Shown here piece by piece: positions 4,020-22,348 of a DNA stretch of 26,654 bases. Numbering within the stretch: position 1 is the stretch's first letter; each line of letters begins with the position of its first letter. This stretch comes from a virus (taxonomy: Duplodnaviria; Caudoviricetes): positions 1-26,654 of the IMG/VR virus record IMGVR_UViG_3300016476_001170, one strand, 5' to 3'. Both the position numbers and the translations under genes were made by a program. Under the pieces are notes generated by a model that was not told the DNA's origin, made no database searches, and saw only the letters and a list, made by a program, of their open reading frames with translations.

Positions 4020-4201
4020 TATTCTCTTTGAAGTTGGGCCCAGGCGAGCCATTGTTGAAAACTATTATATACTGTGAGTGCTTCTTTGTCATCCACAGGC
4101 ACTTTAACGCCGCGCACATAGAAGCCGTCGGCTGCAATACGAAGCATTTCTTCTTGCTTAAGATCCTCGTTGGTGTGAAAAACTATTGTACCGCTATCCA
4201 T
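4019..4201 (-). CDS. hypothetical protein, 60 aa, probably leaderless
   Basis: ATG lies 6 nt after the -10 hexamer; coupled to uvsE. Confidence 0.75.
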   Translation of the reverse strand: MDSGTIVFHTNEDLKQEEMLRIAADGFYVRGVKVPVDDKEALTVYNSFQQWLAWAQLQRE

Positions 4202-4207
4202 ATTGCT

Positions 4208-4236
4208 ATTGTAGCAAAATATGGATTTATAGTCAA
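4208..4236 (-). promoter_or_regulatory. sigma70-type early promoter (repeated cassette)
   Basis: TTGACT-ATAAATCCATATTTTGC(17)-TACAAT. Confidence 0.8.
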
Positions 4237-5454: not shown

Positions 5455-6183
5455 TTATTTCTCGAAACTTATGCTTATAACGTGTTCATAGTTTTTCTTT
5501 ATGAGACTTTTATACATAAGGTTCTTATGCACTAGAAAGTTGGTAGCCCCTACATCCATTGATAGCTTGGCTAACTGTTTGAAAAACAATGTACGTCTAC
5601 TGTATATACCTCTGCACCGGGCCTGCTCACCATTCAATTGATAAAGTGCGGTAGTCCAGATATTTTTATCTCTTTGATCCCAATCGTGAATTTCGGTAAA
5701 AGCAGTAAGTTGATCACCAGATTTGATTATGGCTGGCTGACTGTACTCTCTATCCTTGAAATCCTGATTTTTATAATCCTTGACAGTAGTTATAATCAAG
5801 TTGGCCGAATATTTGCAAAGACTAGCAATAGCTGCTCGTTGCTCATCATCTGAGTTTGCAAAAGTTAAATATTCGTCGAATGCTATTACAAGATCAAACT
5901 TTTTGTCTTCGGCCGAATCAAAAGTTTTTACATTAATGCCTTCAGCATTTAGCCACGTTAACACTTCGTCGCTAACTGCTGTAACATACATTTCTTTATT
6001 TTTATGACGACATGATAATATTGCCGGACTAAAACCAACGAAAAGCACAGTCTCTACGCTTGTATTATAAAACTCGACAATCTTATCGATAATATCTTGC
6101 TTGCGTTCGACTATTTCTTTCTTTTTGGTATGTAGACGAAATGCGTCAAAAATTACATCGCTATACTTACTAAATTCTGTCAT
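5455..6183 (-). CDS. hypothetical protein, degenerate class I SAM methyltransferase-like fold
   Basis: 242 aa; VLFVGF (eroded motif I), KKFDLVIA; TAAATA upstream at 6211-6216. Confidence 0.55.
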   Translation of the reverse strand: MTEFSKYSDVIFDAFRLHTKKKEIVERKQDIIDKIVEFYNTSVETVLFVGFSPAILSCRHKNKEMYVTAVSDEVLTWLNAEGINVKTFDSAEDKKFDLVIAFDEYLTFANSDDEQRAAIASLCKYSANLIITTVKDYKNQDFKDREYSQPAIIKSGDQLTAFTEIHDWDQRDKNIWTTALYQLNGEQARCRGIYSRRTLFFKQLAKLSMDVGATNFLVHKNLMYKSLIKKNYEHVISISFEK

Positions 6184-6209
6184 ATCACTGATATTGTTAT
6201 ATTTGTATA

Positions 6210-7130
6210 TTATTTAGTAGTTTCGCGATTCAAATCTAATGTGACACAGTGGAATCCGCCCCCTAGTGTTCTACTATGGCGCAATTCTAAAGGTATGACT
6301 GTAAATTTAAAAGATTCTAGTAAATTTATTAGATTTTTTTGATTTTTATCAACTATGACTGTATTTGAGTCTAAACTTAACATATTCAACGCAATCCACT
6401 TACTTGCATAAGGATATTGATAAAAATCTTGTGCTACTACATCGTCTACGTATATTTGTTGCCAACCGTCAAATACTTTAGGGCAATTAGACGAGTTAAC
6501 TCTACTAGAATTCAATAAAACTAAACCTTCTCGCAAAGGAACTATGGTACTATCAATGTGTACGCCGGAATAAAAATTACAAAGTTCTATGTTTACATCA
6601 GGAAAGCTTTTACAAAGCCAATCGTATGCCAGTCGATTCCCAGATGCCGACTCTAACATTAGCATTGAATCATTTAAACGCAATACATTTGCGGCATCGA
6701 GTACGGCACCAGAATTTCTATCCATGTGCAGGATTTTGTTTGCGTCTTCCAAAATATCAATGTAACATTGATATTCCATATCTCTGCAAGGATACATCAT
6801 TGCAGGATCGACAACTGTGCTGCCATAGATTAAAAATCTATCCCTCGGGCAATAGTTGTATAGACCGTCGTGTACTTGGAAATTCAGATCATTGGGTCGA
6901 ATAACTTCAGCACCAAATTCACTGAGAACTCTCGTTAGCTCGTCTAAATCTTCGTTGGCTTCATCTATAATCCATTGTGGTACAGGGCCTGCGGGGACAG
7001 GGGTTTCTTTCCACAATGTTTTTTCAGCTTCTAATTTAAAAACAGGATCATTAATGGGCCAATTCGCATGATCTGCTCTGCCTACCACTACCCTTTTTAA
7101 TCGATCCCACTCATTGTAACTTGATATCAT
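6210..7130 (-). CDS. amidinotransferase (glycine/inosamine-phosphate amidinotransferase family); start corrected from 7217
   Basis: SYNEWDRLKRVVVG, NYCPRD, DAAN, HIDST, LGGGFHCVTLD with catalytic Asp/His/Cys; ATGA overlap at 7127-7130. Confidence 0.9.
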   Translation of the reverse strand: MISSYNEWDRLKRVVVGRADHANWPINDPVFKLEAEKTLWKETPVPAGPVPQWIIDEANEDLDELTRVLSEFGAEVIRPNDLNFQVHDGLYNYCPRDRFLIYGSTVVDPAMMYPCRDMEYQCYIDILEDANKILHMDRNSGAVLDAANVLRLNDSMLMLESASGNRLAYDWLCKSFPDVNIELCNFYSGVHIDSTIVPLREGLVLLNSSRVNSSNCPKVFDGWQQIYVDDVVAQDFYQYPYASKWIALNMLSLDSNTVIVDKNQKNLINLLESFKFTVIPLELRHSRTLGGGFHCVTLDLNRETTK

Positions 7131-7645
7131 ACGTGCCCGGTAATCTGTAATGTATACCTGGGAGTTAAACCGATGTTTGCTGCTGCGTGAGGAAGATCGT
7201 ATTCCCATTCGAAACAATCACCTGCACGCCAATCTGTATGTGCTTTGCCGTTTGCTTCAAAATAATGACCGGGTGCCCAATCTTCTAAGAAAACAATTGC
7301 TCTGCGAATAGTCTGCTCCTTGCCCTTAAGGTTAAAAAGCTCTACGTATTTTTTATACAAATCTGCATGCACGGGCAATATAACGCCAGTGTCCATTCGA
7401 TAATAACTAGTGCCGATATCCTTCCAACCTGCTGCTGCAAAAAGATCAACAAATCGTTGATTCCAGCTAGGTTGTCTACTACGCATATCGCACATGGCCC
7501 CAGTAAAAGGACCCAGATAGCCCTGCACAGTCCATTGTGCAACGCTTTCTGGATCATTGAAGGGTTCCCGAATATAAGCTAATTGCTTGTATTCTTCGTC
7601 CCAAAACTTTTGGAAATGGAGTTTAGTTACCCCGTGTATTGCCAT
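7127..7645 (-). CDS. cupin-fold Fe(II)/2OG dioxygenase-like protein
   Basis: LPVHAD (HxD), W.AGD, PHAAANIGLTPRYTLQI (distal His and Arg). Confidence 0.7.
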   Translation of the reverse strand: MAIHGVTKLHFQKFWDEEYKQLAYIREPFNDPESVAQWTVQGYLGPFTGAMCDMRSRQPSWNQRFVDLFAAAGWKDIGTSYYRMDTGVILPVHADLYKKYVELFNLKGKEQTIRRAIVFLEDWAPGHYFEANGKAHTDWRAGDCFEWEYDLPHAAANIGLTPRYTLQITGHV

Positions 7646-8879
7646 AGTGAATTACCTTAACTTCTGCAGTAGAAGCAAGTTTACGCCAAGGATCAACAAT
7701 GATGCTGCCTGGTTTAATTTCGCAGTAAGGTTTAGTATCTTGTTGTTCGCCAGTGTACTCGTAGGTAATCTTGCGATTGTGCGCCCAAAGATAAACTGCT
7801 GCGGTTTCAATTTCTTTTACGCAATCAGTTTGATCGTCTGCTAGCGGATCAACATACTTAAGATTCTGATAACCGTGCTTAGTAACATAGTGACCTACAA
7901 GAGTAGAATAACTGCCGATGCAATATTCAACGTCGGGCTTGTATGCTTTCCCGTGAATAACAATAGGTAGTGCACCATTATCTAAACTGACTTTGATTAA
8001 GAATTTAGCAAGGTTCTCGGCTTGAATTTCGCGAGCATGCATGATGGTATCAAACAAGTCGTAGCCAATGTCATAGTGCTCGGCTAGCCAACGTAGTGCA
8101 ATGTTATCACGTGGATGGCAAGCACCGGCGTCACCCATACCGGCAGTCATGTACTTGGGACCCTGTAGACGCATAGTACTGCGAGCAAGAGCATTAGTAA
8201 CAACATCAACGTTAATGTTACCAATCTTCATTGCAAAGTCTTGGATCATGTTGACAATACCAACCTTTGCGGAGATATAGGTATTGTAGAAAATCTTAAT
8301 AGCTTCGCATTCATCCCATGTGCCAACTTCGTAACGGGGATCGTTCTGCATCATGGTTTTGTATAGAGTGATTAGTTCACCGGCAACGCCAGTTAGGCTA
8401 CCATCTTCTGTTCCGATAATAACCATCTCGGGATTAGCCATGTCCCACTTAACACTGCCCATGGCAATTAGATATGGGTTGTACAAGAACTGGTGCTTCT
8501 TATCCAGCAGTGTGATGAACTTGCGACGTGTAGTGCCCGGGAGAACTGTGGAAATTAAAACAACCTTTTTACTGGTCTTGGCGTATTGGTTAACTTTGTT
8601 GATTGCATCGATTACCGCGTCATGGCCAAAGTCTTTTGGTTCCATGTGACTGCTTGGAACAGATCCATCGTAGCCTTCGGCATGCGGTGTAGGAACTGCA
8701 ATAAAGATCCATTCTGCGTTATCGCATAGTGTTTCGATGTCACAAACTTTGACAGTGTCACTGGTCCGCGGATAAATATCATATCCCCAGACATCATGCT
8801 TTTCTGCCATAACTTCTGCGCAGTCTAGTCCTAACTTACCAATCCCTATAAAACCAATTTTTTCTCTTTTGAATGACAT
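7623..8879 (-). CDS. UDP-glucose/GDP-mannose dehydrogenase family protein
   Basis: GIGKLG Rossmann motif, IAVPTP, STVLPGT, EAIKIFYN, GACHPRD (catalytic Cys), GKAYKPD. Confidence 0.9.
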   Translation of the reverse strand: MSFKREKIGFIGIGKLGLDCAEVMAEKHDVWGYDIYPRTSDTVKVCDIETLCDNAEWIFIAVPTPHAEGYDGSVPSSHMEPKDFGHDAVIDAINKVNQYAKTSKKVVLISTVLPGTTRRKFITLLDKKHQFLYNPYLIAMGSVKWDMANPEMVIIGTEDGSLTGVAGELITLYKTMMQNDPRYEVGTWDECEAIKIFYNTYISAKVGIVNMIQDFAMKIGNINVDVVTNALARSTMRLQGPKYMTAGMGDAGACHPRDNIALRWLAEHYDIGYDLFDTIMHAREIQAENLAKFLIKVSLDNGALPIVIHGKAYKPDVEYCIGSYSTLVGHYVTKHGYQNLKYVDPLADDQTDCVKEIETAAVYLWAHNRKITYEYTGEQQDTKPYCEIKPGSIIVDPWRKLASTAEVKVIHYGNTRGN

Positions 8880-10061
8880 ATGTTCTCCGTTGAAAATTTC
8901 TATTACGTATTATATACAAATTTACTTAAGCCTGCAAATTTGTACATGTATTATTTTTATCCTTTTGGGTCAGTCGGTGAAGAAAATTTAATGAAAGAAT
9001 TTGGAACATATAAAAAAAGCAATGGTATTGATAGCTTCAATACGCCGCTATCTTTATTTTATGACCAAGAACCTTTACTCGATTTTCACTTCAATAAACT
9101 TAAAGAACATTTTTTACTCAGAACCAAATACTGCAAATTACTTGCAAATAGCGAGCACTCTGATGTCAAAAAGAAAATTTGCAAAATCAACAGTTATGTT
9201 GATTGGTATTACTTTTTTCACGGATTCGCTGCGCTCGATTGGTACCGGGATTACAAATATTTTTCAAATTTTGAACCCAAGATTGATAAAGTATTTATTT
9301 CTTTAAACAGACTATCGATGAGAGATAGAAGTTACAGATTATTGTTAGTTTCGGAATTCATGGAACGGAATTTATTAGATCATGGGTTTGTAAGCCTAAG
9401 CCTCAATGATCGTGGAGACGGTACATGGGAAGACGAAATAAATGATCCGCACACTAAAATACCAAATCACAAAATACCCATAATTCAAAAGAATTTATCT
9501 ACATTAACTGGATCTCTTGTAGTCGACAAAGATGATCCCCAGGGAGAACTAAGTGCACATGCGGGCCCAAACGAATTAACTTTAAACAAAAGAGCATTAT
9601 GGCATGTTGTAAGCGAAACAGTTTTTTATTACGACAAACTTCATTTAACCGAAAAAATATTTAAACCAATAACCGCTAAACGCCCCTTTATTTTAGTTGC
9701 AGCTCCTGGAAATTTAGCTTACCTGAAAAGCTACGGATTTAAAACATTTGATAAATGGATTGACGAAAGCTACGACAACGAAATAGATCCTGCAAAAAGA
9801 ATAGAAATGATAGCAAACGAACTGGAAAAACTTTGTAAATTGACTCCGGCACAGTTGCAATCCATGCACTCGGAAATGCAAGAAACACTAGAATACAACT
9901 TTAACCATTTTTACGGCAAATTTAAAGAGATAATAATCGACGAACTGTTAGATAATTTTAAAGGTGCAATACATCAATGGAATCATGCAAGAGTTAATGG
10001 CAGAGACATAAGCTTAGATAACATAAATTTTGCAGAAGTTAGAAGATTGCTTCTCCAATAA
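8880..10061 (+). CDS. uncharacterised phage protein, putative glycosyltransferase-like
   Basis: 393 aa; VVSET...LTEKIFKPI...PFIL...LKSYGFKTF...DESYD; the TEK segment recalls GT10/GT-B enzymes; start abuts the divergent gene. Confidence 0.6.
   Translation: MFSVENFYYVLYTNLLKPANLYMYYFYPFGSVGEENLMKEFGTYKKSNGIDSFNTPLSLFYDQEPLLDFHFNKLKEHFLLRTKYCKLLANSEHSDVKKKICKINSYVDWYYFFHGFAALDWYRDYKYFSNFEPKIDKVFISLNRLSMRDRSYRLLLVSEFMERNLLDHGFVSLSLNDRGDGTWEDEINDPHTKIPNHKIPIIQKNLSTLTGSLVVDKDDPQGELSAHAGPNELTLNKRALWHVVSETVFYYDKLHLTEKIFKPITAKRPFILVAAPGNLAYLKSYGFKTFDKWIDESYDNEIDPAKRIEMIANELEKLCKLTPAQLQSMHSEMQETLEYNFNHFYGKFKEIIIDELLDNFKGAIHQWNHARVNGRDISLDNINFAEVRRLLLQ
8909..8937 (-). promoter_or_regulatory. sigma70-type promoter for the dehydrogenase operon, inside the divergent gene
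   Basis: TTGCAG-N17-TATAAT; GGAG at 8885-8888. Confidence 0.65.
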
Positions 10062-10088: not shown

Positions 10089-10370
10089 ATGGGCGATATT
10101 TTTAAAATTATAGGCGATTTAGGCATGCCAATAGCTGCTGCACTAGCAGGCGGCTACTTTGTATATCTCACAATTAAACTGTTATTGCAAGGAGTTTTGG
10201 GCAGTATCAAAGGAATGGCGGGCATTATTACTGCATTGGATAATCGTGTTAAAACAATGAACCACGATGTTGTAAGAATTGACACTATTGTAAGTAATGC
10301 ATTGGGTCTAAAACCAGATGTTGACCGTATTGCTCGTGCAGACGGTAAAACCGACGCCCGTAGAGATTAA
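10089..10370 (+). CDS. small single-TM plus coiled-coil protein (holin-like/YvrJ-BhlA-like)
   Basis: LGMPIAAALAGGYFVY helix then heptad-like region; TAAATA at 10059-10064. Confidence 0.7.
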   Translation: MGDIFKIIGDLGMPIAAALAGGYFVYLTIKLLLQGVLGSIKGMAGIITALDNRVKTMNHDVVRIDTIVSNALGLKPDVDRIARADGKTDARRD

Positions 10371-10382
10371 AGGAATCTAAAA

Positions 10383-10721
10383 ATGGATGTAGTAGAGTTA
10401 GTCAATAAGTATGGATTCCCAATTGTCATGGCTGTTGGCATGGGTTTTATTATCAAATACGTTTGGGAATGGGCAACTAAAGAAGTTAAGCCAGTCATCG
10501 GCGATGCTAATACTGTATTAATTGCTCTTATTGATCGTATCCGTATGCTGGACAATGACTTGATACGTTTAAATCAAAAAGTTAATACTGTATTACACCT
10601 GCGTGGTAAAACCATTGAATACGAGCGTGTCGAAGCTGAGAAAGAAATCAACGACTTATCAAAGCACAAAAAGCCCGAAGACGACGAAGACAAAAAGACT
10701 GCTGCTGCGGGCGAAGGTTAA
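10383..10721 (+). CDS. small single-TM plus coiled-coil protein, paralog of 10089..10370
   Basis: YGFPIVMAVGMGFII; ALIDRIRMLDNDLIRL aligns with ALDNRVKTMNHDVVRI; AAGGA RBS. Confidence 0.75.
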   Translation: MDVVELVNKYGFPIVMAVGMGFIIKYVWEWATKEVKPVIGDANTVLIALIDRIRMLDNDLIRLNQKVNTVLHLRGKTIEYERVEAEKEINDLSKHKKPEDDEDKKTAAAGEG

Positions 10722-12791
10722 TTACTTGCTTGTAGCTCTATAGATGCCATCCCAATCTTTGGGCAGAGTTTGTGTCTTCATTTCCTTGCAACGATCAATC
10801 CATAGTTCATAGTAGTGCTTCATTTGTCCATCAAACTCTGACATTAATTGCTTAGACATCTTAATTGCATCATCAAACTTTTGTTCTCTATAAGCTCTGA
10901 TCATCATATTATGATTTTTTCGAGCTGCTTGATATACTGCCATGTTAACGCCTTCTGTGTGAAGTAATGGAGTATAAATGTTTAGACCAACAGCTTTGCC
11001 TTTAACTGCAATGCAATCTAACTCTAAACAAAAGAAATCGTTCTTAACTTCCTTGTAAGTATCTGGGCCGATAATAACAAGTACGCCATAACCCTTAGTT
11101 TGACCTTCTAATCGACTGGCAACGCTAACAGGATCGCCTAGTACGTCATAGCCCATCTTACCTTCGCTACCAATGTTACCCACTAGTATCTTGCCTGTGT
11201 TAACGCCTGCGCCCATACCAACTGGAGGCTTACCAATTGATTCCAAGTGCTTGTTAAATTCGTCGACTGCCTTAATCATTTCGATGGTGGTCTTAACAGC
11301 ATGATAAGCATGACGATCATCATCCAATGGAGCACCGTGAATGTGTAAGCTTGCATCGCCAATAAACTTAATCAAGCAACCGTCATTGGCAAACACCGGT
11401 TTACTGATAGCAGTCATGTATGCGTTCATAATAGCTGTAAAGCCTTCTACGTCAGCACCGTACTTTTCACCCAATCCAGTAAAGTTACGCATGTCTGTCA
11501 TAACAGCAGTAAGCATCTTTTCTTCACCGCCCAATTTAATTAGGTCAGGATTCTTTTGTAGACGCTCCACAATAACTGGGCTTACGTAACTGCCGAACTG
11601 TTTCTTTATTTGCTGCTTTTGGAGGAACTCGCTGACGAACTTGACACCGTAGGCGTGCAAAGCGACCAAGATTGTGCCACTTGCAAAGGCAGTAATGTCA
11701 AATAGCCATAAAAAGCTAGTATAAGAATACCAACTGCCAAAAATGGCGCCGCCGACCAACACAACAATCGAAGCCAAGCCAACATAAGTCCACCTCGTTA
11801 AAAATAATAAAAGAATACCTGCAGCAGCTATTGCTAAAATTTCTAAGCCGTCTGCATAGTCCGGCCTTTGAATTGATACACCATTAAACATCGTGCCCAA
11901 TAGTGCAGATTGAACTTCATGTGGCCATACACTACCGACAGCAGTAGGGACAGGGTTACCTAAACCTGCAGCAGCAACGCCCACTATAACAACAGCGCCG
12001 CCAAAGTCCTTTGGCAATTCTGTCATCGAAACTGACTTAGATTTTTGACTCCAGTCAATCCAAACACGACCCAAGCTGTCTGTAGCAATAGGACCAAACT
12101 TTGGAATGCGCATCTTCTCCACACCGCCCTCAAACAGTTTGATTTGTGTAGTACTATCACCTGCAGCCACACGCAGCGTTTCCATAGCCAAGCTTGGATA
12201 TACAACGCCATTTGCAGCGACAACTAAAGGCATGCGGCGATTAACGCCATCGACTTCTGGTAGTGTATTAACAATGCCTGTGCCTGCTGCACGACTTTCG
12301 ATTTCTGTTACGTTGGCAATAATGCCAGGATAACTTACAATCATATTCGAGTAGTCTGCGCCGATAACTGCTGTGCTTGGCTGTCTCGGACTATTCTTTG
12401 TTCGATCAGCTGGCATATTTGGAATCACAACAGGATACTTAGATAGTGTAGTTGCAAGAGCTGCATCACCGCCTCGACGATCCTGTTCAGTCATTAAGAC
12501 ATTAAACACAACCAAGCCTGCATTGCGCTTGTACAAATCTTCTATCAATTGGGCATATATTTGCCGATTAAATGGCCATTGTCCGTACTTGTCCAGTGCG
12601 TTTTCATCAATATTAACTGTGACTATGTTATTTTGTGTGGGTGCTTTACTGGTGATTAATGTATCGAAATATCTTAATCGAACGCTTTCAACAAATTGTG
12701 TATCGCTAGTACGAATGCCGAGCACAATTGCTAAAGTGATTAGTGCCAACCATGGGCTCAATAAAATATTTTTAATGTTGATTTTCTTCAT
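10722..12791 (-). CDS. CHASE2-domain class III adenylate cyclase
   Basis: N-terminal TM; IVTVNIDE..LDKYGQWPFNR (CHASE2); three TMs; QFGSYVSP, TDMRNFT, IKFIGDA, GNIGS, YDVLGDPVSVASRLE, VKGK; Lys/Asp pair indicates ATP specificity. Confidence 0.93.
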   Translation of the reverse strand: MKKINIKNILLSPWLALITLAIVLGIRTSDTQFVESVRLRYFDTLITSKAPTQNNIVTVNIDENALDKYGQWPFNRQIYAQLIEDLYKRNAGLVVFNVLMTEQDRRGGDAALATTLSKYPVVIPNMPADRTKNSPRQPSTAVIGADYSNMIVSYPGIIANVTEIESRAAGTGIVNTLPEVDGVNRRMPLVVAANGVVYPSLAMETLRVAAGDSTTQIKLFEGGVEKMRIPKFGPIATDSLGRVWIDWSQKSKSVSMTELPKDFGGAVVIVGVAAAGLGNPVPTAVGSVWPHEVQSALLGTMFNGVSIQRPDYADGLEILAIAAAGILLLFLTRWTYVGLASIVVLVGGAIFGSWYSYTSFLWLFDITAFASGTILVALHAYGVKFVSEFLQKQQIKKQFGSYVSPVIVERLQKNPDLIKLGGEEKMLTAVMTDMRNFTGLGEKYGADVEGFTAIMNAYMTAISKPVFANDGCLIKFIGDASLHIHGAPLDDDRHAYHAVKTTIEMIKAVDEFNKHLESIGKPPVGMGAGVNTGKILVGNIGSEGKMGYDVLGDPVSVASRLEGQTKGYGVLVIIGPDTYKEVKNDFFCLELDCIAVKGKAVGLNIYTPLLHTEGVNMAVYQAARKNHNMMIRAYREQKFDDAIKMSKQLMSEFDGQMKHYYELWIDRCKEMKTQTLPKDWDGIYRATSK

Positions 12792-12877
12792 AATCGTGTC
12801 CAGGTGTTACAGTATTTACCATGTGGTGATTTTAATAGTCACAACGGTAAAATGCGCCATACACTTTATTGATCTTG

Positions 12878-13498: not shown

Positions 13499-14605
13499 CT
13501 ATTTTTGATTTATTGTAATAACTGTACTTCCGCCTTTATTAACTTGTTGTGTAACTTGAACACCAGACTGAATAATATTCACCACGGCATTTTTGTCTGT
13601 ATCTACAGTTACGTATGCTGTGTGGGTCGTATCTCTGTATAAGGTTACTTTGCTTTTATCATCATTTAGGTAATATTTTAAGCCAGTAGCTGGATCATAG
13701 TTCGGTAATAATGTCTTATCGAGTTGATTTCCTAACAAAATATTATTTTGCTGATCCAGTAAATTAACGCTAAATGTGACCAATGCGTTTCCTAACAAAT
13801 CAACATCAAGTTGATTCATATCCAATTCTTTAAAATCATCTAAGAAATTCTTATCTAGACCGCTAAATTTTAAGAAATCTACATTTAGCATATTAGCTAG
13901 TTCATCTTTGCCACTAACTTCTTCTATGTTGTTAAGCTCGGGTGGCTTACTAACAATCAATAAATTATTAATATTATTTTGATCCAACTTAACTACTACA
14001 GGACTAGACGGTGGTGTAGAAGTAGTTGCTACCATAGTCGCTTGATAAGGAGCGTCTAAAAATACTACGCCAGCGTCATTACGAACTTCAATGGCGCCAG
14101 TTACACAGCCTTTATTATCGCAGCTGGGAAGTAGCATAATTAAGCTGCGTCCCAACTCATCAACAGTCATACTAAAATCTGTTCCTCTCACGGCAATACT
14201 AGCAGTAGGGGTTTTAATGTCAACTGATTGCGGATTAGACTTAGCAATTTGACCACTAGCGTACCTTGCTGTGCCTAGCGCAACCTTCATCGCCAATTTG
14301 CCTGATCCTTTGTTTGGATCATACACAAAGTCGTCGATAACTAATTTACTTTGTTCATTGATCTTAACTACAGTATTGTCTTCGAAAGTTAGTTGAGCTT
14401 TTGCCTTGGCCGTAGTGATAGTGTCCTGCATTTCCACAGGCGTATTAACATTACTGGGCATACTTTTGTTCTTACGAACAATTTCTGTGGGCCCAGTTTG
14501 TTCAGTAACTTTACCTACCGCAGCCCAATTAATCGGACTGACTAATAGAAACGTTATTACCAGTACCGCTTGTGCTAACTGTGACACTCTTTGCTGTAAG
14601 ACCAC
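13499..14605 (-). CDS. exported FecR-domain protein
   Basis: Signal-like N-terminus; DTITT...LTFEDNTVVKINEQSKL...G..RYASG...IKTPTASIAVRGTDF; GTG start with GGAG 9 nt upstream. Confidence 0.85.
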   Translation of the reverse strand: MVLQQRVSQLAQAVLVITFLLVSPINWAAVGKVTEQTGPTEIVRKNKSMPSNVNTPVEMQDTITTAKAKAQLTFEDNTVVKINEQSKLVIDDFVYDPNKGSGKLAMKVALGTARYASGQIAKSNPQSVDIKTPTASIAVRGTDFSMTVDELGRSLIMLLPSCDNKGCVTGAIEVRNDAGVVFLDAPYQATMVATTSTPPSSPVVVKLDQNNINNLLIVSKPPELNNIEEVSGKDELANMLNVDFLKFSGLDKNFLDDFKELDMNQLDVDLLGNALVTFSVNLLDQQNNILLGNQLDKTLLPNYDPATGLKYYLNDDKSKVTLYRDTTHTAYVTVDTDKNAVVNIIQSGVQVTQQVNKGGSTVITINQK

Positions 14606-15131
14606 TTTGTGTTACTCCAACTGTATTTGAATTTCCATTTACTGTGATACCTGCATAGGTAAGTCCAGTGTTTGTGCTAGTGTGTGTTACTGTGTTTGTA
14701 TCACCGGTTACGCTGATTGCGCTTGTATGGTTAGCACCTGCTCCCAATAATTGAGATACTGTGTTGCCATCACCAACAATAGTTTGTGAAATTGTACTAC
14801 CTGAACAACCTGCAGAACTTGTTGTTCCGCATTGTATTGTTTGGATATTATTGTCACCTGTCGTGGATACTGTTACTGTAGCTGCTGCGCCATTAACGAC
14901 CAATGCCAAACTGTTGCCGCTACCAATTTGGTCAACGGTAACCTGAGTAGCATTGCCACCGATGTAAGCAGCATCGACGCTGTCGCCTACGGTATTCCCT
15001 GTTCCTTGTTGTGTAATAGTCACAGTGGCGCCATCACCAACTTGTTCCACATATACTTCGCTGGCAATTGCTGTGACTGCGCTAAATGCAGTGAACAGCA
15101 ATGCCATTATTAAACTTTTCTTAAAAGTCAT
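14529..15131 (-). CDS. curlin-like (CsgA/CsgB-type) repeat protein
   Basis: Sec signal peptide then repeated (Q/x)xGxxN beta-arc units (QQGTGN, QIGSGN, TTGDNN, IVGDGN, VTGDTN, VNGNSN, TSGTGN); directly downstream of csgG. Confidence 0.8.
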   Translation of the reverse strand: MTFKKSLIMALLFTAFSAVTAIASEVYVEQVGDGATVTITQQGTGNTVGDSVDAAYIGGNATQVTVDQIGSGNSLALVVNGAAATVTVSTTGDNNIQTIQCGTTSSAGCSGSTISQTIVGDGNTVSQLLGAGANHTSAISVTGDTNTVTHTSTNTGLTYAGITVNGNSNTVGVTQSGLTAKSVTVSTSGTGNNVSISQSD

Positions 15132-15934
15132 TTATTAGCTCCTTGTTTTTCTTGTTTTTTGAAGCTCCATAATCCTTTACGCTCGCCCTCCACAATCATG
15201 TTGTAAACAGCTTGTTCAATTGCTACTCGAACTGCATATGTTGTTGGTTCATTGAGAACTGCGCCGTTTTCCATTTCAACGGCCCTTGTTCCTGCATCAA
15301 CAAATCTTAGCATGTTTATATCATGTGCGGTACTATAGATTGTTTTTGATACGGCGTTAGTCAACAAAACTTCTCCGGAATTAACCGAAACAAGACGTAA
15401 GCTAATTACAACTTCGTCCACTCTGTACTGTTGGCTTGCGCCTATTCCCAATAGTCTAGCACCTGTTCCTCCTGAACGAATATTGCTATCATACCCAATG
15501 ATACCTCCCTCGATCATAACGCCAGCCACTGTCATTGGTTTCAATGGCTTAGCATCCTTGCCTTCGTAAACTTCTCTTTGATTACGAATTAGTTGACGCT
15601 CTTTGATTAAGTTATCTAATCCCACACGTTCGACAACTTTAAACCAACCCTTGTATTCTTGCAATGAGTTAATTAAAAATACTTCTGCACCTTGCGTTAC
15701 TGCTTTACTAAACAGTGCCAACTTGTCATTGGGTTTCATCTGACCAGTCTTATCCATAAAACCATATACTGCTATAGTCATGGGAGGACCATCTAGTGCC
15801 GGAACAAGATTTACCAAATGTTCCCTAGGCTTTAACACAATGGGTTCTTCTTGATTGGTTTTGAATTCGTGATTTGCTTGTGTAGCGCAACCACTTAGTA
15901 AACCAACAAGTATTAGTGCTATTATTTTCTTCAT
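15128..15934 (-). CDS. csgG: curli secretion channel lipoprotein CsgG (start corrected from 15946)
   Basis: LLSGC lipobox; IAVYGFMDKTGQMKP, FSKAVTQGA, WFKVVERVGLDNLIKERQLIR, IEGGIIGYDSNIRSGGTGARLLGIG, LRLVSVNSGEVL. Confidence 0.95.
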   Translation of the reverse strand: MKKIIALILVGLLSGCATQANHEFKTNQEEPIVLKPREHLVNLVPALDGPPMTIAVYGFMDKTGQMKPNDKLALFSKAVTQGAEVFLINSLQEYKGWFKVVERVGLDNLIKERQLIRNQREVYEGKDAKPLKPMTVAGVMIEGGIIGYDSNIRSGGTGARLLGIGASQQYRVDEVVISLRLVSVNSGEVLLTNAVSKTIYSTAHDINMLRFVDAGTRAVEMENGAVLNEPTTYAVRVAIEQAVYNMIVEGERKGLWSFKKQEKQGANK

Positions 15935-15935
15935 C

Positions 15936-16385
15936 TTAGAACCCAAAGCTGGCTATCGGAACGGTAACGTCAGTTCTATTACCGTTCGCTTCGATGATAG
16001 TCAATGTAACATCTGCGCTGTTTTTCACCCAGCTGATGTTAGTGCCTTGAAAGTTCATTGTTCCGCTTGTTGCACCGCCATCAGTAAACATTGCGTCTGC
16101 TAATTGTTTACTCAATTGGGCGTAGATGCGGGATTCTACGTTGTTTAAAAACTTAGATAAGTTTGTGTTATTTCTTGCTCGTGCTTCTGCATCTGCAGCA
16201 GCTTTAGCTTCATCTTTAAGCTTTTGTTTGCGTTGGGATTCTAACTGTTCGATCGTTAGGACGTGCGAAGAATACCCGTTTCCTGGAATGAAAGACGGGC
16301 TTTGAAACTGATGCACTAATTCGGCCGAAAAGGCTGTTGATAGCCCTAAGCTTAAAATAGTTACAACAACTAGTTTATTTCGCAT
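15936..16385 (-). CDS. csgF: curli assembly factor CsgF
   Basis: Signal peptide then ELVHQFQSPSF..GNG (CsgF N-terminal FxFxNPxFGG-like), LSKFLNNVESRIYAQLS; immediately upstream of csgG. Confidence 0.85.
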   Translation of the reverse strand: MRNKLVVVTILSLGLSTAFSAELVHQFQSPSFIPGNGYSSHVLTIEQLESQRKQKLKDEAKAAADAEARARNNTNLSKFLNNVESRIYAQLSKQLADAMFTDGGATSGTMNFQGTNISWVKNSADVTLTIIEANGNRTDVTVPIASFGF

Positions 16386-16419
16386 GATTGGTCCTTATAG
16401 TATTTACAGGGACCAATCA
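16385..16419 (-). promoter_or_regulatory. RBS-sequestering hairpin with TAAATA late-promoter motif in the loop
   Basis: 10-bp perfect stem 16410-16419 / 16385-16394 covers GGA of the AAGGA RBS and the A of ATG; TAAATA at 16401-16406. Confidence 0.75.
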
Positions 16420-16425
16420 AAAAAA

Positions 16426-16740
16426 TTAAGTGGTAGCTTTTGCTATTCTTGCAAGAATTTCGTCGTAAAAACTGTCCAGTTCGCCGCCGAATTTACCCCT
16501 TAAATGCTCTGCAGCATCAATACAGAACTTGTAATTGTTCTTGTAGTATTCTTTAATAAATTCGCTGTGCAAAAACTTGTATTGTTCCAATGTTGGAAGC
16601 TCTAGAACAGGTAAAGCATCTGCATCAATAACACAATAGCTGGGAATTTTCTCGCCGTTGCGCTCAAATGTTTCTAGCTCTAATACTGTATAGTTTTCCT
16701 TGAGGCGTTCTGCAGCTTCTTCACCAAGTATGATATGCAT
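16426..16740 (-). CDS. stand-alone homolog of the C-terminal ~100 aa of the CHASE2 cyclase
   Basis: IILG...K...LELE vs IIG...K...LELD; H...I..Y........I.....L...F.G....FY.....R vs the same pattern in 10722..12791. Confidence 0.75.
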   Translation of the reverse strand: MHIILGEEAAERLKENYTVLELETFERNGEKIPSYCVIDADALPVLELPTLEQYKFLHSEFIKEYYKNNYKFCIDAAEHLRGKFGGELDSFYDEILARIAKATT

Positions 16741-17149
16741 GTTCTGCTTCCTCTAATGCTTTAAAGATTTGTTCGGGATTCATATTATGATTTTTATAGC
16801 CCTCGTAAACCATGCTAAGATAACTTTCACTGGGCCCGGCCAATAGATTATCAGGTTGCATAAAATAAATCATTGCAGTGATAGTTTTTCCTTTGAAATT
16901 AACCTGCACTTGTTTTTTATCATAAAACAAAGGATAACCTTCTAAGATGTCTAGCGCAAGCTCGCAGTTATCTGTAATGTCCCATAATGCACATTCCATT
17001 GATGCACCCGGTTCCTCTACAGCATCGCAAAAATTTTTAAATGCCAGCTTATGGTTTTCCAGTATCACGGAGCCGAGACTCTTAGCAAAAGGGCAACGGC
17101 GATCCATCTCTCTGAAATTGGTGTTCATTCCGTAAGCAAGGTAATACAT
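16721..17149 (-). CDS. gamma-glutamylcyclotransferase (AIG2-like) family protein
   Basis: YYLAYGMN, LDILEGYPLFY, PSESYL. Confidence 0.88.
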   Translation of the reverse strand: MYYLAYGMNTNFREMDRRCPFAKSLGSVILENHKLAFKNFCDAVEEPGASMECALWDITDNCELALDILEGYPLFYDKKQVQVNFKGKTITAMIYFMQPDNLLAGPSESYLSMVYEGYKNHNMNPEQIFKALEEAEHAYHTW

Positions 17150-17679
17150 TATAGCTCCGCTAGCTTATATCGTTTAACTGCGCTTTGCACAGCTTCGGCC
17201 TGACTGACACAGTCAGCAAGGGCGTTGTGCAACATAGCACCCGGCTCACGATCATCGCCCAGTGCCTTTAGCAAAGTGCGGCTATCACGAATAGTATAAT
17301 ATGGCCATGGCGCAGGCTTGCCTAGTTGTCGATAAAGATTTTCTAGAATCACAATATCAAATACTGGGCCTTGAGCCCAAATGCGATCAGCGCCTAACAC
17401 AAACTTGTTTAAGGCTCGTGTAAAGTCTTCTAAGCTTACACGGTCGTGTTCGCCCAGTGCTTCTTCCCTAACCGCTTCATTTTGTGTGCCCCACCAAGCA
17501 ACGGTGCCCTCATCGACGCGACGACCTAACTCAATTTGTTCATCGACGTTGATTCGAAAATAAAGCCCATCCTTCATTTCTTTGGAACTATCAAACGGAT
17601 CAAACTTAATAGCGCCAAAAGTTAAAATAACGCTGTCGGGGCTTGTTGCCAGCGTCTCAAGGTCTAGCATCACGTCCAT
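17149..17679 (-). CDS. DEDDh 3'-5' exonuclease (RNase AS/DUF5051-like)
   Basis: MLDLETL, IWAQG..FD..IL, RDSRT, HNALAD. Confidence 0.88.
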   Translation of the reverse strand: MDVMLDLETLATSPDSVILTFGAIKFDPFDSSKEMKDGLYFRINVDEQIELGRRVDEGTVAWWGTQNEAVREEALGEHDRVSLEDFTRALNKFVLGADRIWAQGPVFDIVILENLYRQLGKPAPWPYYTIRDSRTLLKALGDDREPGAMLHNALADCVSQAEAVQSAVKRYKLAEL

Positions 17680-17683
17680 GCTG

Positions 17684-17995
17684 TTACTCCGCAGGTTCTA
17701 GTTTGACTACTAGTGGAAATCCGTTGTTACGAGCAAGTAGTGTTACTTCTACACCTTTTTGTTCTGCCATTTCATAAGGCATTGTGGCAACAACTGCAGA
17801 ACCATCGGTATGGATTTTCATAGTCATTTCTTCTGCTTCCATTTGACTATAGTTAAAAATGATTACCAATGTTTCAACTACAAATTCTTGAGTAGTCACT
17901 TCATCATTGATATAAATCACATTGTATTGCACTGGTTCCGGAATATCTTCGCGGGGCTTGATTTTTTGTACTGCTTTTGGTTCTGCTGTAGACAT
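17684..17995 (-). CDS. clpS: ATP-dependent Clp protease adaptor ClpS
   Basis: YNVIYINDEVTTQEFVVETL..IF, MKIHTDGSAVV, EMAEQK, GFPL. Confidence 0.92.
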   Translation of the reverse strand: MSTAEPKAVQKIKPREDIPEPVQYNVIYINDEVTTQEFVVETLVIIFNYSQMEAEEMTMKIHTDGSAVVATMPYEMAEQKGVEVTLLARNNGFPLVVKLEPAE

Positions 17996-18008: not shown

Positions 18009-18035
18009 TAAAAAGGGGAGACAATTCTCCCCTTT
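18009..18035 (-). terminator. intrinsic terminator after hsp20
   Basis: Inverted repeat 18012-18021 / 18026-18035 (GGGGAGA/TCTCCCC core) ending in a T run. Confidence 0.8.
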
Positions 18036-18064
18036 ATTATAACACCGTTACTTTATTTTGTAAA
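18036..18064 (-). promoter_or_regulatory. sigma70-type promoter for the clpS operon
   Basis: TTTACA-N17-TATAAT with TGn; predicted start falls inside the terminator's 5' arm. Confidence 0.65.
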
Positions 18065-18496
18065 GGTGATGGCAATCTTTTTGGGCTTTTGCTCTTCGGG
18101 AATGATCCTTTCCAGAGCAATTGCAAGAATGCCGTTTTGCACTGTTGCAGCTTTGACTTCCACATTGTCTGCCAATGTAAATGTGCGTTCAAAATTGCGT
18201 GTGCTAATACCCTTGTGGGTATAGTTAATTTCGGACTCTTTCTTTTCCTTTGTGCCTTTGATTATCAATGTGGACTCTTTCAGTTCAACGTCGATTTCAT
18301 TTTCGGCAAATCCTGCAACGGCAACTTCGATTACAAAATGCGAATCGTCAAGTTGAGCAATGTTGTAGGGAGGATAGTTATCACTACCACGACTATTCGC
18401 AAAAGTGCGATTTAGTTCTTCAAACATACGGTCAAAACCAATGGCATGACGATGTAGGCTAGGTAGATCAAGAGTACGGATTTCAAATTTTGTCAT
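18053..18496 (-). CDS. small heat-shock protein Hsp20 (IbpA-like)
   Basis: IGFDRMF, NYPPYNI, IEVAVAGF, YTHKGISTRNFERTFTLA, NGILAIALER. Confidence 0.95.
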   Translation of the reverse strand: MTKFEIRTLDLPSLHRHAIGFDRMFEELNRTFANSRGSDNYPPYNIAQLDDSHFVIEVAVAGFAENEIDVELKESTLIIKGTKEKKESEINYTHKGISTRNFERTFTLADNVEVKAATVQNGILAIALERIIPEEQKPKKIAITFTK

Positions 18497-18597: not shown

Positions 18598-18853
18598 TTG
18601 ATTTGGGAGGATTCATTGGCTCTACCAGACGCCAACGGCTTGTGGCCACACTTTTGGATTCCCATGTCAGAGCCCAAAATGAATAATGTTCGGGATTGTC
18701 AAAAGTTATTTTCAAACGATAATTTTGAGTTTTTACCTTATAAGGTATTTGATATTTTTCGTGCCATTCTTTAAAGGCTTTTTCTATGTAATATTTTGTA
18801 TAACCTGCTGCCATCCCGCCAGCACCAGAAGGCAAGGTAAATTCAATGTACAT
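18590..18853 (-). CDS. hypothetical protein
   Basis: 87 aa; TAATG overlap with rpsU. Confidence 0.8.
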   Translation of the reverse strand: MYIEFTLPSGAGGMAAGYTKYYIEKAFKEWHEKYQIPYKVKTQNYRLKITFDNPEHYSFWALTWESKSVATSRWRLVEPMNPPKSID

Positions 18854-19095
18854 TAATACATTCTTTTGGGCAGCGATTCAGCAGCCAACTTTTTGCGCCA
18901 GCGGTTCTTTGCAGCACTGGCGGCCTTTTTGCGAGTTGTTGTGGGCTTTTCATAAAACTCTTTGTCGCGTAGAGTTTGCAGTATACCGTTTTCGGCTACC
19001 TTTTTCTTAAACTTACGCAGGGCTTTTTCTACGTTATCATCTTTAACGTAAACTACCATACCCTTCGACTTTCGAGGTCTATCAAAACTCATCAT
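18853..19095 (-). CDS. rpsU: ribosomal protein bS21
   Basis: VYVKDDNVEKALRKFKKKV...GILQTLRDKEFYEKPTTTRKK. Confidence 0.92.
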   Translation of the reverse strand: MMSFDRPRKSKGMVVYVKDDNVEKALRKFKKKVAENGILQTLRDKEFYEKPTTTRKKAASAAKNRWRKKLAAESLPKRMY

Positions 19096-19360
19096 CTATT
19101 TCCTTTAACCATTCTAGTAAGTCTCGGTCACGATAATGCCTATAATCGTAAATGCGATTTGGCGGGATCATTGCACGAATGCCCTCTGCCCATTGTATAT
19201 CGTTAACACCGTCGTGATAAAGATAAATGTCGTATTCTTTTTCACTTAAGTTATTTACTAAAAATTCAATTTGTTCGTTGGTCCAGTCTGCATTTCTGAT
19301 AAAGATTTTCTTTGCAGTTCTGTCAAAATTCATATCTGGACAAGTATAAAAATTTGGCAT
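19082..19360 (-). CDS. hypothetical protein
   Basis: 92 aa ORF tiling the operon. Confidence 0.8.
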   Translation of the reverse strand: MPNFYTCPDMNFDRTAKKIFIRNADWTNEQIEFLVNNLSEKEYDIYLYHDGVNDIQWAEGIRAMIPPNRIYDYRHYRDRDLLEWLKEIDDEF

Positions 19361-19364
19361 AAGC

Positions 19365-20144
19365 TTATCTCTTTGCTGTAATCATTAAGTGCCAACCCAA
19401 TGCTCGTTCCATAATTTTAAACAATTCCGGGGGCATAGCTTCAAACCAAGGCTGTTTCACATATTCGTATTTTACATAGTGTTCTATGTTCCAAGGAAAA
19501 ATAAAATCCTGCTCAACTTGCACATTTCCAAATGCGCCAAACAACTGTCTAGCTTCTTCCTTTGTATAGGTCACAGCTTGCGGGCAGTTGCTTTGTGCTT
19601 CTGGTTGATCCCAATTAGCTTCGATTAAGATATTTTTCCAACTGTTTTTAGCATACAACATCACTTTGATTTCACCGTCATCTGCTAACAAGTTGGGCAA
19701 ACAGGACACTACACGTTCCGGATGCGGTGCATGATGAATTACTCCAAAACTATAGATCAGATCAAACTTTTCACCATTGGCGAATACTTTGTACAGCTCT
19801 TCTGCGTTACATTCAATAAAAGTACCTTCGAGACCAAAAACTTCAAATCTTTTTTTAGCTAATTTAATACTTTCCCCGCTTAAATCAACACCTGTGTAAA
19901 TTGCACCATGTCGAGCAAAGTTGGTTGCATCTGTGCCAATGCCGCAGCCGATTTCTAGAACACGTTTGCCTTTCCAGCGTTCAAATTCGGGGAATGTGTA
20001 ATTATGCGGTTCGTTGGCGTATCTTCTAGCCTCAACTTCGTCAAAGTATTCTTTAGATCCAATGGGACTTGTACTGTGTCTAATGTTGCAAGGACGATTG
20101 TTCCAGTATGTTCTTACTTGTTCTAATAGATCTTGATTACTCAT
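19365..20144 (-). CDS. class I SAM-dependent methyltransferase
   Basis: [26 protein letters not shown]; ATG at 20144 preferred over TTG at 20150. Confidence 0.9.
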
Positions 20145-20850
20145 TGCCAACCTTTGCTGATAATTTTGCGATCCAGTCTCTTAGATCTTGTTGACGTTGC
20201 GGATGACTGTAGTCTTCGGGGTTAGTTGGATCTCTGCCGTCTGCTGCATAGCTTTGCTCACGGAAAGTTTCATCATCGTTGCCGCCGGTAACGTCTGCAC
20301 GATCATGATAAACTTGCACAGAAATATTTTTCATACGACCGACAGGAACTGTTACATTATAGATCCACCAATCACTATGATTAACTGGGCTTACCATTCC
20401 AAAGAAGTTAACCCACTCTCTAGGCACAATCGGGAATAGTGCAAATGGATGGTTCATAGTTACACAAGGCATACGCAATAATCCAAAGTATCCGTCTTCT
20501 TTACGAATCTCTTCGTCCCAGTGTTCTGTAAGCATCAGTGCGTCGTCGTTCCAGAACATGATCCATTCTCCCGTTGCTTGCTCGGCAAGGAAGTTAACGT
20601 ATTTGTATAGGCGCAGATATCCGAAACGTTCAGTTTCAAATACTTTTGTTGTTGCGCCGGCCTGTTCTAGAAACGGAAACCAAGTAGAAGAGAAAAACTC
20701 TCTGCTTTCTTCGTCATCATTATCATAAGCAATTAAGATTTCGATATCAGCAGGATTTTTAGCATTGGCTAACAAACTGCCAATACTTTTAATTACTGCT
20801 TCTGTTCTTTTTCTTGTGGGTAATAAAATAGATATTTTAGGTTTTGTCAT
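20137..20850 (-). CDS. glycosyltransferase family 2 (GT-A)
   Basis: [30 protein letters not shown]; start set at MTKPK. Confidence 0.85.
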
Positions 20851-22348
20851 TGGATAATTGTTTGAGTTTTTCTTCAACTAGCTCTTGTTCGCTAGCACTT
20901 AATTGATCGAGATCATATTCGCCCGACTGCAATTTTTCTATTAAGAATAGTATATATTGTTCGTCGTAAGTATAGCTATCAGTTTTGGATTTGTCTACTT
21001 CTATCCATTTTTGACCATTGAATTTAAACAACTTATTTGGTAAGTAGTCCACTCTCAGGAATGTATCGCCTTTGTTGGCACCGTTTGGAAATGCTGTTCC
21101 GAATCCACTTTGGCTAGGTGCGGCCTCTATATTATCAGCGGCCAGTGCCGAAACTTTTCTTACGTTTAGTGCTTCTGGAACGGGCGCAATCTCCACTTTG
21201 TTGCGAGCAGCAGTTTCTGGAACTTTAGGAAATTTAGAAACTTCTGCAGGAGTTAAATAATCCCCCGGGCGCTCATTGCCAATATCTAGGCCTGGTGCAT
21301 TAGGACTTTCCACAATTGGCTCAATTGTCTCAACAGGCTCTTTCTTCGTTTTCTTAGCTTTGGGTTTTTTTGATGCAGAGGTTTCTGCTGCAGGCGCGAC
21401 CATTGGCTTTCCAGTCGGAAAATGATCAAACGGCATTGACAAATAGGGATGCTTAGCTAAGATGGATTCTTCAGGTGTTTGCTGAGTGCCTACCTCAGGC
21501 TCGATGGCTGGTTCTTCCTGAATTAGTGCTTTGTCTTCAGTGCTTGCATCATCAACTGCGGCTACGGATTCTTCTACTAGATATTCCTTTTCTTCTCGGG
21601 CCCAACGTAAGCTTTGTTGTGCAGCAAGAATTAATACTAATGCCAGAGGATCAAATACTGCCACAATCAGAATAATTACCCAACGGACTGCTCGTTCTAA
21701 GATATTTGCATCTGGATTGTCGCCGTAAATCAGCGCCGCAATATACTTTATAGGACCAACTTCGTTTTCGATCTTACGAAACTCTGCTCGTAACGGCGCA
21801 ACTTCTTCGTTAAGGCTAGCAATCTTTTTCTGCTCGGCGTCGATTTCAGCGAGTAATTTGGTACGCTCTTTCTGTTGATTCCTGCGAATAGATACAGCTT
21901 TGTCGGCGCCTTTTTCATCTGTACTGCGCGCCATGACTTGGTCCACTGCTTCATCCATCTGTTTAAGAGCTTTACGGTTGGCTTCGATGTTATCCTTGGC
22001 AGTACGTATCTTTTCGTCATAGATTGCAACCTTTGCTTGACTGTCACCGCTTACTAAACTTTGATCGCTGTGTGCTTTGGATAAGAATCCGAAAATGCCC
22101 ATTGAGGTTAGCAACATAAGAAATGCTACAGCAGGCACAAGATACATTTTGTATGCTAAAGATGCACGATCCCAATTTTGCTTTAACCAAACTGCTGCTG
22201 TAACTTTACCAACTTCGAGGCTAGCGCCCATGATTAGAATTGGGAGAACGGCTCCAGAGAAGATAGCTGCCAAACCAGTGATGCTGTAATAAGCTCCCAC
22301 AGCTTCGATAACCAGTGCAACTAGTAAAGTAAAATATCCAAAAAGCAT
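20837..22348 (-). CDS. multi-pass membrane protein with coiled coil and Pro/Glu/Lys-rich cytoplasmic tail
   Basis: Three N-terminal TMs, long coiled coil, fourth TM (FDPLA), low-complexity linker, C-terminal FGTAFP...GDTFLRVDYLPNKLFKFNG.KW domain. Confidence 0.8.
   Translation of the reverse strand: MLFGYFTLLVALVIEAVGAYYSITGLAAIFSGAVLPILIMGASLEVGKVTAAVWLKQNWDRASLAYKMYLVPAVAFLMLLTSMGIFGFLSKAHSDQSLVSGDSQAKVAIYDEKIRTAKDNIEANRKALKQMDEAVDQVMARSTDEKGADKAVSIRRNQQKERTKLLAEIDAEQKKIASLNEEVAPLRAEFRKIENEVGPIKYIAALIYGDNPDANILERAVRWVIILIVAVFDPLALVLILAAQQSLRWAREEKEYLVEESVAAVDDASTEDKALIQEEPAIEPEVGTQQTPEESILAKHPYLSMPFDHFPTGKPMVAPAAETSASKKPKAKKTKKEPVETIEPIVESPNAPGLDIGNERPGDYLTPAEVSKFPKVPETAARNKVEIAPVPEALNVRKVSALAADNIEAAPSQSGFGTAFPNGANKGDTFLRVDYLPNKLFKFNGQKWIEVDKSKTDSYTYDEQYILFLIEKLQSGEYDLDQLSASEQELVEEKLKQLSNDKT

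Follow-up and report, generated by a model that had tools for sequence, protein, structure and literature searches.

A predicted free-standing adenylate cyclase tail module encoded beside clpS in uncultured jumbo phages

The DNA analysed here, referred to as the window, comprises the 26,654 bases of one virus record. Between csgF of a viral curli block and the hsp20-clpS group, its minus strand carries a short stand-alone gene, here called the tail gene, whose product resembles the C-terminal end of the class III adenylate cyclase encoded further downstream (Table 1). The Shine-Dalgarno-like GAGGA of the tail gene sits within the 3' end of the upstream GGACT gene, and the two genes overlap by 20 nt. 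The window cyclase has intact motifs except for an Asn to Ser exchange in the N...R motif, and its C-terminal module runs from the last core strand through a VKGK hairpin and TPR-like helices to a W-x-G-x5-K tail. In phage cyclases generally (motif GDxVSxAxRLE), Ser replaces the transition-state Asn, and these enzymes end in an invariant Lys, as do bacterial tail-bearing cyclases. Facing the cyclase on the plus strand, positions 10089-10721 encode two paralogous small membrane proteins (both phrog_18771) that recur near the cyclase in relatives. The conserved block at 3006-10061, syntenic across most relatives, contains UvdE, amidinotransferase-like and UDP-glucose dehydrogenase-like genes and an opposite-strand 393-aa gene, and 5' of hsp20 the minus strand (18853-20877) encodes ribosomal protein S21, a methyltransferase and a GT2 glycosyltransferase.

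Table 1. Features around the tail gene, in window positions unless residues are given
Feature	Position	Strand	Remarks
CHASE2 class III adenylate cyclase (PF00211) of the curli block	10722..12791	-	689 aa
Cyclase C-terminal module, homologous to the tail gene	10722..11084	-	residues 570-689
TAAATA late-promoter-like word	12813..12818	-	21 nt 5' of cyclase start
csgF, csgG, curlin, fecR (viral curli block)	13499..16385	-	mobile neighbour
Hairpin over csgF ribosome-binding site and start	16385..16419	-	TAAATA (16401-16406) in loop
Stand-alone cyclase-tail gene	16426..16740	-	104 aa, short form without Trp tail
Elements of the tail-gene product (model and alignment)			strand 2-5, helix 7-13, hairpin 18-38, three TPR-like helices 51-103 (residues)
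Gamma-glutamyl cyclotransferase-like (GGACT) gene	16721..17149	-	variable neighbour, 19/80 loci
Shine-Dalgarno-like GAGGA of the tail gene	16749..16753	-	read directly, 8 nt upstream
Rv2179c-like 3'-5' exonuclease	17149..17679	-	beside short form in 79/80 loci
clpS	17684..17995	-	constant neighbour of the tail gene
Terminator-like hairpin 3' of hsp20	18012..18035	-	overlaps start region of clpS promoter
Sigma70-like promoter before clpS	18036..18064	-	TTTACA-17-TATAAT, 11/12
hsp20	18053..18496	-	

A preliminary description of the window had quoted two blocks of similarity between this gene and the end of the cyclase. Both are present in the 104-aa open reading frame, and residues 3-104 of the tail protein align without gaps to cyclase residues 572-673 (about nt 10773-11084) at 17% identity (BLASTP, E 4e-5). 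Homologs of the tail protein come in a short form, as in the window, and a long form of 112-130 aa that retains the P-x-x-W tail of the cyclase. The profile comparison proposed earlier agrees with the alignment: a profile from 120 homologs matched the window cyclase with a probability of 96 (E 3.6e-9), one from 74 longer homologs matched it across residues 572-687 with the W-x-G tail included (E 7.1e-13), and a 131-sequence family profile gave the real cyclase 44.2 bits against 5.7 bits for the best of 1000 shuffles. Superposition of structures, also proposed, points the same way. The AlphaFold2 model of the tail protein (pLDDT 89) matches the models of two phage cyclases over its full length, with TMq 0.68 and 0.73 across 101 columns. 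Against the PDB, the top rows for this model are adenylyl cyclases, with merely 38-41 columns and E 0.6-1.0, a weak similarity confined to the first ~40 residues. A weak and partial match is expected because none of the 36 solved sequences that match the window cyclase aligns past residue 607. VIA-align returned generic helical matches (best Z 5.9), with TPR domains at Z ~5 and not above unrelated helical rows. Neither PF00211 nor any other Pfam family was found in the tail protein at E 0.1, which includes TPR, and the long-form profile matched no PDB sequence. Matching the TPR-like cyclase tails in both profile and fold across the entire module, the tail protein is classed here as a free variant of the class III cyclase tail module and not as a member of the class III cyclases.

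The catalytic residues are indeed missing, as had been noted: the metal Asp, substrate Lys/Asp and Asn/Arg positions of the cyclase all precede residue 570 and are consequently absent from the tail protein. A VKGK-like word occurs in just 2 of 265 family members versus 31/33 phage and 14/15 bacterial cyclase tails (45/48), and the terminal Lys of the W-x-G tail in 0/265 versus 46/48. The long form retains the Trp; the short form in the window keeps neither Trp nor terminal Lys. Comparison of columns among 121 close cyclases, 76 long forms and 189 short forms places the beginning of the family at cyclase residue 570 and identifies L589, E590, L591, H627, L649, G651, G655, D658, Y661 and R667 (cyclase numbering) as retained, together with W680 in the long form. 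In the numbering of the tail protein, L20, L22, H58, L80, G82, G86, D89 and Y92 are conserved, plus the W of the long form. Ile605 of the cyclase is replaced by Ala, Ser or Thr in the family. A G-x-F/W-x-G-x-x-D-x-F/Y-Y loop was found in 229/265 family members (with a pattern also allowing Asn), in 16/33 phage cyclases and in 0/15 bacterial tails. Two further candidate features were dropped: a Cys/His metal site, because the Cys is not invariant (82-94%), and a Leu571-to-polar change as a sign of lost packing, because bacterial cyclases are polar there too.

Class III cyclases form head-to-tail dimers whose interface is built by core elements upstream of the tail fragment. By alignment these elements are absent from the tail protein, which starts at the last core strand, so that a half-dimer decoy is unlikely and the earlier argument from the dimeric nature of these enzymes is not supported.

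Clustering at 90% gave 130 proteins of the tail family, and at 50% (E up to 0.001) 346 representatives, of which the best 150 are 82-144 aa long and nearly all match from residue 1. Longer, fused forms were not found at E 0.001 in a search that missed full cyclases too. The free tail protein has no match in Pfam, PHROG or NCBIfam, and where its relatives carry a name it is 'hypothetical protein'. Neither form matched any of 50,697 GenBank phage records, and 185,579 prokaryotic genomes, searched with the short-form pattern only, yielded a single hit on a 9 kb MAG contig with phage gene order. This contig (JANZYY010000187.1) belongs to a Fischerella MAG and is probably a mis-binned phage contig. 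Atlas neighbours of the tail protein are viral clusters; for the long form there are additional bacterial clusters of 118-125 aa, which may be fragments. The tail gene was single-copy in 12/12 large genomes. Taken together, the family is unnamed, single-copy and phage-restricted, and it comes from giant uncultured (jumbo) phages. Host prediction from ClpS and S21 yielded no host.

To place the family we used an unrooted tree of 99 tails over 124 columns (a sample of 51 family members, 33 phage cyclases after thinning to <72% identity and, as a small bacterial sample, 15 bacterial tails). The family forms one clade (100/100) on a long stem (1.25) and attaches close to the base of the phage cyclases, which is unresolved, and outside the starred 29-row set containing the window cyclase. 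A constraint joining the tail protein and the cyclase of the window was rejected (p-AU 0.011). The earlier designation as a copy of the cyclase's C-terminal module is thus right as to homology (E 4e-5 to 7e-13) and wrong if a recent duplicate is meant. Short forms mostly make up one derived group (25/26, SH 96 in a quick tree). The family profile scored a median of 46 bits on phage cyclase tails versus 9.9 on the 15 bacterial tails. These data place a single ancient origin of the tail gene near the base of the phage cyclases, and the cyclase lineage of the viral curli block is its likely source. In sister lineages the curli-cyclase block lies directly downstream of hsp20-clpS in 31/80 cyclase loci, which opens a possible route: a truncated cyclase copy could have been left stranded under the clpS promoter. 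Sister lineages without the tail gene show the order dnaK-hsp20-clpS, then genes that by eye are heme oxygenase-like and ferredoxin-dependent bilin reductase-like (L185:2204-3422, L229:2302-3517, L240:2395-3625, L193:1619-3484), then the curli block.

The tail gene, called diverged but intact in the preliminary description, lives up to both words, and the proposed check found purifying selection. Its reading frame is open, at 99-130 aa, in 112 classified loci. The median Nei-Gojobori dN/dS was 0.155 over 47 pairs with dS 0.1-0.8, which are not independent; clpS gave 0.074 and hsp20 0.09. For the window's own gene all partners are saturated, with ratios of 0.38-0.54. Split by context, the ratio came to 0.129 for loci that contain the curli block and to 0.11 for those that lack it (11 pairs each), four saturated cross-clade pairs (dN >0.35, ratios 0.76-1.06) having been set aside. 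An all-pairs value of 0.47 (1393 pairs, dS up to 1.5) was discarded as inflated by saturation. The gene is intact and under purifying selection, with dN/dS about 0.11-0.16.

Gene neighbourhoods tie the tail gene to clpS and hsp20. In 80 short-form loci we found clpS 80 times, the exonuclease 79, hsp20 78, csgF 34 and a cyclase catalytic domain 12 times, and in 80 long-form loci clpS 80, hsp20 79, the cyclase 8 and csgF 4 times; many loci of both kinds end early or are near-identical. Pooled, clpS is present in 160/160 loci, hsp20 in 157/160 and a 503-aa gene in 136/160. In six loci clpS overlaps the start of the tail gene (gap -3), and in one more it is 10 nt away. Scanning in reverse from clpS, with a query biased to this group, 41/45 loci with 4.5 kb downstream carry the tail gene; it is missing from the other 4/45, which have sufficient flank. 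In sister lineages, 23/31 clpS-bearing cyclase loci have no tail gene. Between clpS and the tail gene, loci L013-L080 contain an insertion hot spot whose genes, as identified by eye, are a cytidyltransferase-like gene in 58 loci, homing endonucleases and tripartite tricarboxylate receptor-like and PP-loop-like genes.

The link to the cyclase is far looser. A search for PF00211 across the whole of the 24 longest carrier records found it in 10/24, but among the 11 records with a completeness of 90% or more (318-354 kb) only 2 have it. No class III cyclase was found in the remaining 9/11, one of which is 100% complete with terminal repeats. CsgG was likewise absent from five near-complete carriers searched, and in 4/5 of these genomes the best match of the window cyclase is the tail gene itself. 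Viewed from the cyclase, the tail gene lies within 10 kb in 8/80 loci and is absent from 10/11 cyclase-bearing records searched whole, namely the complete Melnitz genome and 9/10 partial records (32-71% complete). The co-occurrence check therefore went against the original proposal: the tail gene is not tied to the phage cyclase, it is not co-inherited with csgF, csgG, fecR or the cyclase, and it is selected equally with or without the block. From the carrier, cyclase-side and clpS-side counts, the tail gene ranks as near-core within the hsp20-clpS block, with the curli-cyclase block as a mobile neighbour.

The words preceding the two groups of genes differ. The sigma70-like site before clpS is the best within the 9.5 kb scanned, a region where such sites overall are no more numerous than in shuffles. 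A site of at least 10/12 precedes clpS in 83/127 distinct relatives versus 2.8% of shuffles; TAAATA is also found upstream of clpS, in 61/127 relatives (shuffles 16%). This promoter overlaps the hsp20 stop region and the terminator, and in relatives its -35 word falls within the final codons of hsp20. None of 65 short-form upstream regions has a sigma70-like site (at least 10/12) for the tail gene's own use, and TAAATA precedes the tail gene in 6/65 short and 0/56 long forms (shuffles 5-7%), so the late word of the curli block is not common to the tail gene. The clpS promoter is the likely source of the tail-gene transcript, as far as promoter words can tell. TAAATA stands close upstream of both csgF and the cyclase. 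Between the tail gene and csgF no terminator was called; a hairpin (-18.1 kcal/mol, z -4.9) lies there instead, with the csgF ribosome-binding site buried and the late-promoter word in its loop. Among 32 distinct csgF 5' regions, 26 have TAAATA, and the stem sequences vary while the structure is kept. We predict that this hairpin combines a late promoter with a block on translation from early read-through. The layout resembles that of T4 late genes, which are shielded from early read-through by a comparable arrangement. With a sigma70-like site before clpS and TAAATA before csgF and the cyclase, the tail gene would be expressed early with clpS and the curli-cyclase block late, in keeping with the earlier suggestion that the small protein is made before the cyclase. 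This contrast may supply a timing for the viral curli block.

As to function, the tail protein might be a mimic of cyclase tails that acts on the host cAMP machinery, a reading close to the host-cyclase branch of the earlier proposal and one which we adopt tentatively, deducing target and inhibition from descent and from retention without a phage cyclase. Made early from the clpS operon as a folded, non-catalytic binding module, it would bind a host protein that normally meets such tails, either a host cyclase with a tail of this kind or a regulator of that enzyme. Its mode of action would be tail exchange, or titration of a tail-binding partner, and not half-dimer formation; host cAMP signalling would be damped early in infection. 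A host protein is the likely partner because the majority of complete carriers encode no cyclase themselves, and the target may lie in the cAMP machinery because a piece of a protein tends to keep the partners of the whole from which it derives. The origin in a cyclase tail and the single-copy retention at dN/dS 0.11-0.13 regardless of the curli block favour this reading. Hosts could offer a target, since bacterial cyclases with a variety of sensors (GAF-PAS, receiver, HAMP and Cache), as well as CHASE2/FecR-linked alphaproteobacterial enzymes, terminate in the same TPR-like tail, whose helices have TPR Pfam matches; the family profile finds such cyclase tails in 13/121 genomes of the cyanobacterial phylum, with weak E-values. 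The GAF-PAS cyclases bearing this tail are presumably of the CyaB1 type, and in Anabaena CyaB1 the TPR-like tail is reportedly required for full activity. Bacterial tails and the phage protein have in common the last core strand, the hairpin, three helices and, in the long form, the Trp tail; the phage protein differs in being free-standing and in lacking catalytic core, VKGK and terminal Lys.

Several observations speak against an action on host cAMP. The family is nearer to phage than to the 15 bacterial tails (46 vs 10 bits), something that the mimicry of a host tail would not require. The conserved residues can all be read as fold-keeping, and the Ile605 change, the long stem and the lost Trp tail would fit a new job. 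No cNMP-binding domain was found in 12 carrier genomes, the phosphoesterase that adjoins the long form has PptH, and not the cAMP phosphodiesterases, as its nearest match, and the constant neighbours are clpS and hsp20. This phosphoesterase, a calcineurin-like protein encoded head to head with the long form, had been considered as a cAMP-phosphodiesterase partner. It is present in 73/80 long-form and in no short-form loci, with an orthologue in 7/7 long-form and 0/5 short-form genomes, and its closest solved fold is PptH (TM 0.72-0.74, E 3e-11), compared with TM 0.50 and E 3e-6 for Rv0805. Because PptH is closest, because the gene has its own late word (56/56), and because no copy lies near eight long forms and the pattern comes from just two clades, we set this candidate aside.

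Nearly as likely as the host-cAMP reading is that the tail took on a new role as a TPR-like adaptor or co-chaperone serving the ClpS/Hsp20 protein-turnover operon and has left cAMP behind. This close rival draws on the constancy of clpS and hsp20, on the overlapping or closely spaced starts and the reverse scan from clpS, on the resemblance of the helical half to TPR domains, which is not distinctive, and on the long stem. Yet the whole block, 503-aa gene included, is syntenic, so proximity may be history, and the tail gene has been lost from some clpS loci and is missing from most clpS-bearing sister loci.

With somewhat less confidence, the host-cAMP reading can be extended to a timed sequence: the early tail protein may shut host cAMP off, and phages with the curli block may restore it late with their membrane cyclase. 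Here the tail protein would swap into, or outcompete, the tails of host class III cyclases, which we regard with equal reserve. A complex prediction for cyclase residues 417-689 with the tail protein gave a score of 0.01 and a mark of 0.32, in a run whose controls did not fold.

It is rather unlikely that the phage cyclase tail already bound a further, putative target, such as a host protein of defence or housekeeping, and that the free copy took over this task; we give the same low credence to the corollary that this copy let the cyclase block come and go. The loop common to the family and phage cyclases, missing from bacterial tails, and the attachment at the base of the phage cyclases would fit, but the bacterial sample is small and the loop may serve structure alone.

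More doubtful still is control of the phage's own CHASE2 cyclase, which the tail protein would hold off until late; this was part of the original proposal. The family is closest to phage cyclase tails, the early and late promoter words would suit such a role, csgF adjoins in 34/80 short-form loci and a cyclase is present in 10 of the 24 large records. Against this stand the near-complete carriers without a cyclase, the cyclase records without a tail gene (Melnitz among them), the rarity of the two within 10 kb and the equal selection with and without the block. The idea of a remnant in decay, or of one half of a cyclase encoded in two pieces, is largely refuted: its start coincides exactly with cyclase residue 570, but the frame stays open under selection and no catalytic half was found in 9/11 near-complete carriers at E up to 1.

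Catalytically dead enzyme fragments and mimics can act as dominant-negative regulators. Like them, the tail protein is a dead, folded and conserved piece of an enzyme; unlike them, it is a peripheral tail with no half-dimer domain, and it mostly occurs without its parent enzyme. We know of no partner of the TPR-like cyclase tail.

Type VIII secretion (curli) genes together with those for FecR and an adenylate cyclase have been reported as a block in viruses (Wittmers et al. 2022, PMC9599517). The window contains this block, whose cyclase lineage is the likely source of the tail gene; the accessible text of that article mentions no free tail, and the tail gene is not co-inherited with the block and has the opposite promoter type. 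ClpS adaptors of jumbo phages (Iyer et al. 2021, PMC7824862), and the setting of phage bS21 next to hsp20 and Clp genes (PMC9723584), were likewise published before, and they represent the gene neighbourhood in which the tail gene lies; no cyclase-derived protein is mentioned in the accessible portions of these papers. Cyanobacterial cyclases are listed in PMC2853384, as far as its accessible part goes. In line with the earlier statement that no description was known, our literature search turned up, in main texts, neither a cyclase tail encoded on its own nor a phage inhibitor of cyclases; supplements could list the tail protein as a hypothetical protein.

The tail family consists of unnamed, conserved genes of a sizeable group of jumbo phages, with a traceable origin in a signalling enzyme. 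Since many bacterial class III cyclases end in a TPR-like tail, the isolated, well-folded module is a ready reagent for a partner search. If it acts on host cyclases, it would represent a new phage route to cAMP control; if its partner is ClpS, it would show plainly how a piece of an enzyme can become an adaptor. If host cAMP is indeed switched off and later on, the tail protein would give a first handle on the binding partner of this widespread tail. The PptH-like metallophosphoesterase may deserve its own look as a phage phosphopantetheinyl hydrolase-like enzyme. At L088:7384-8187 (minus strand) and in 72 other long-form loci it lies antisense between clpS and the tail gene, with a GNDEH motif, a TIGR03729 match under cut-off and TAAATA on its own strand, a late antisense gene within an early transcript.
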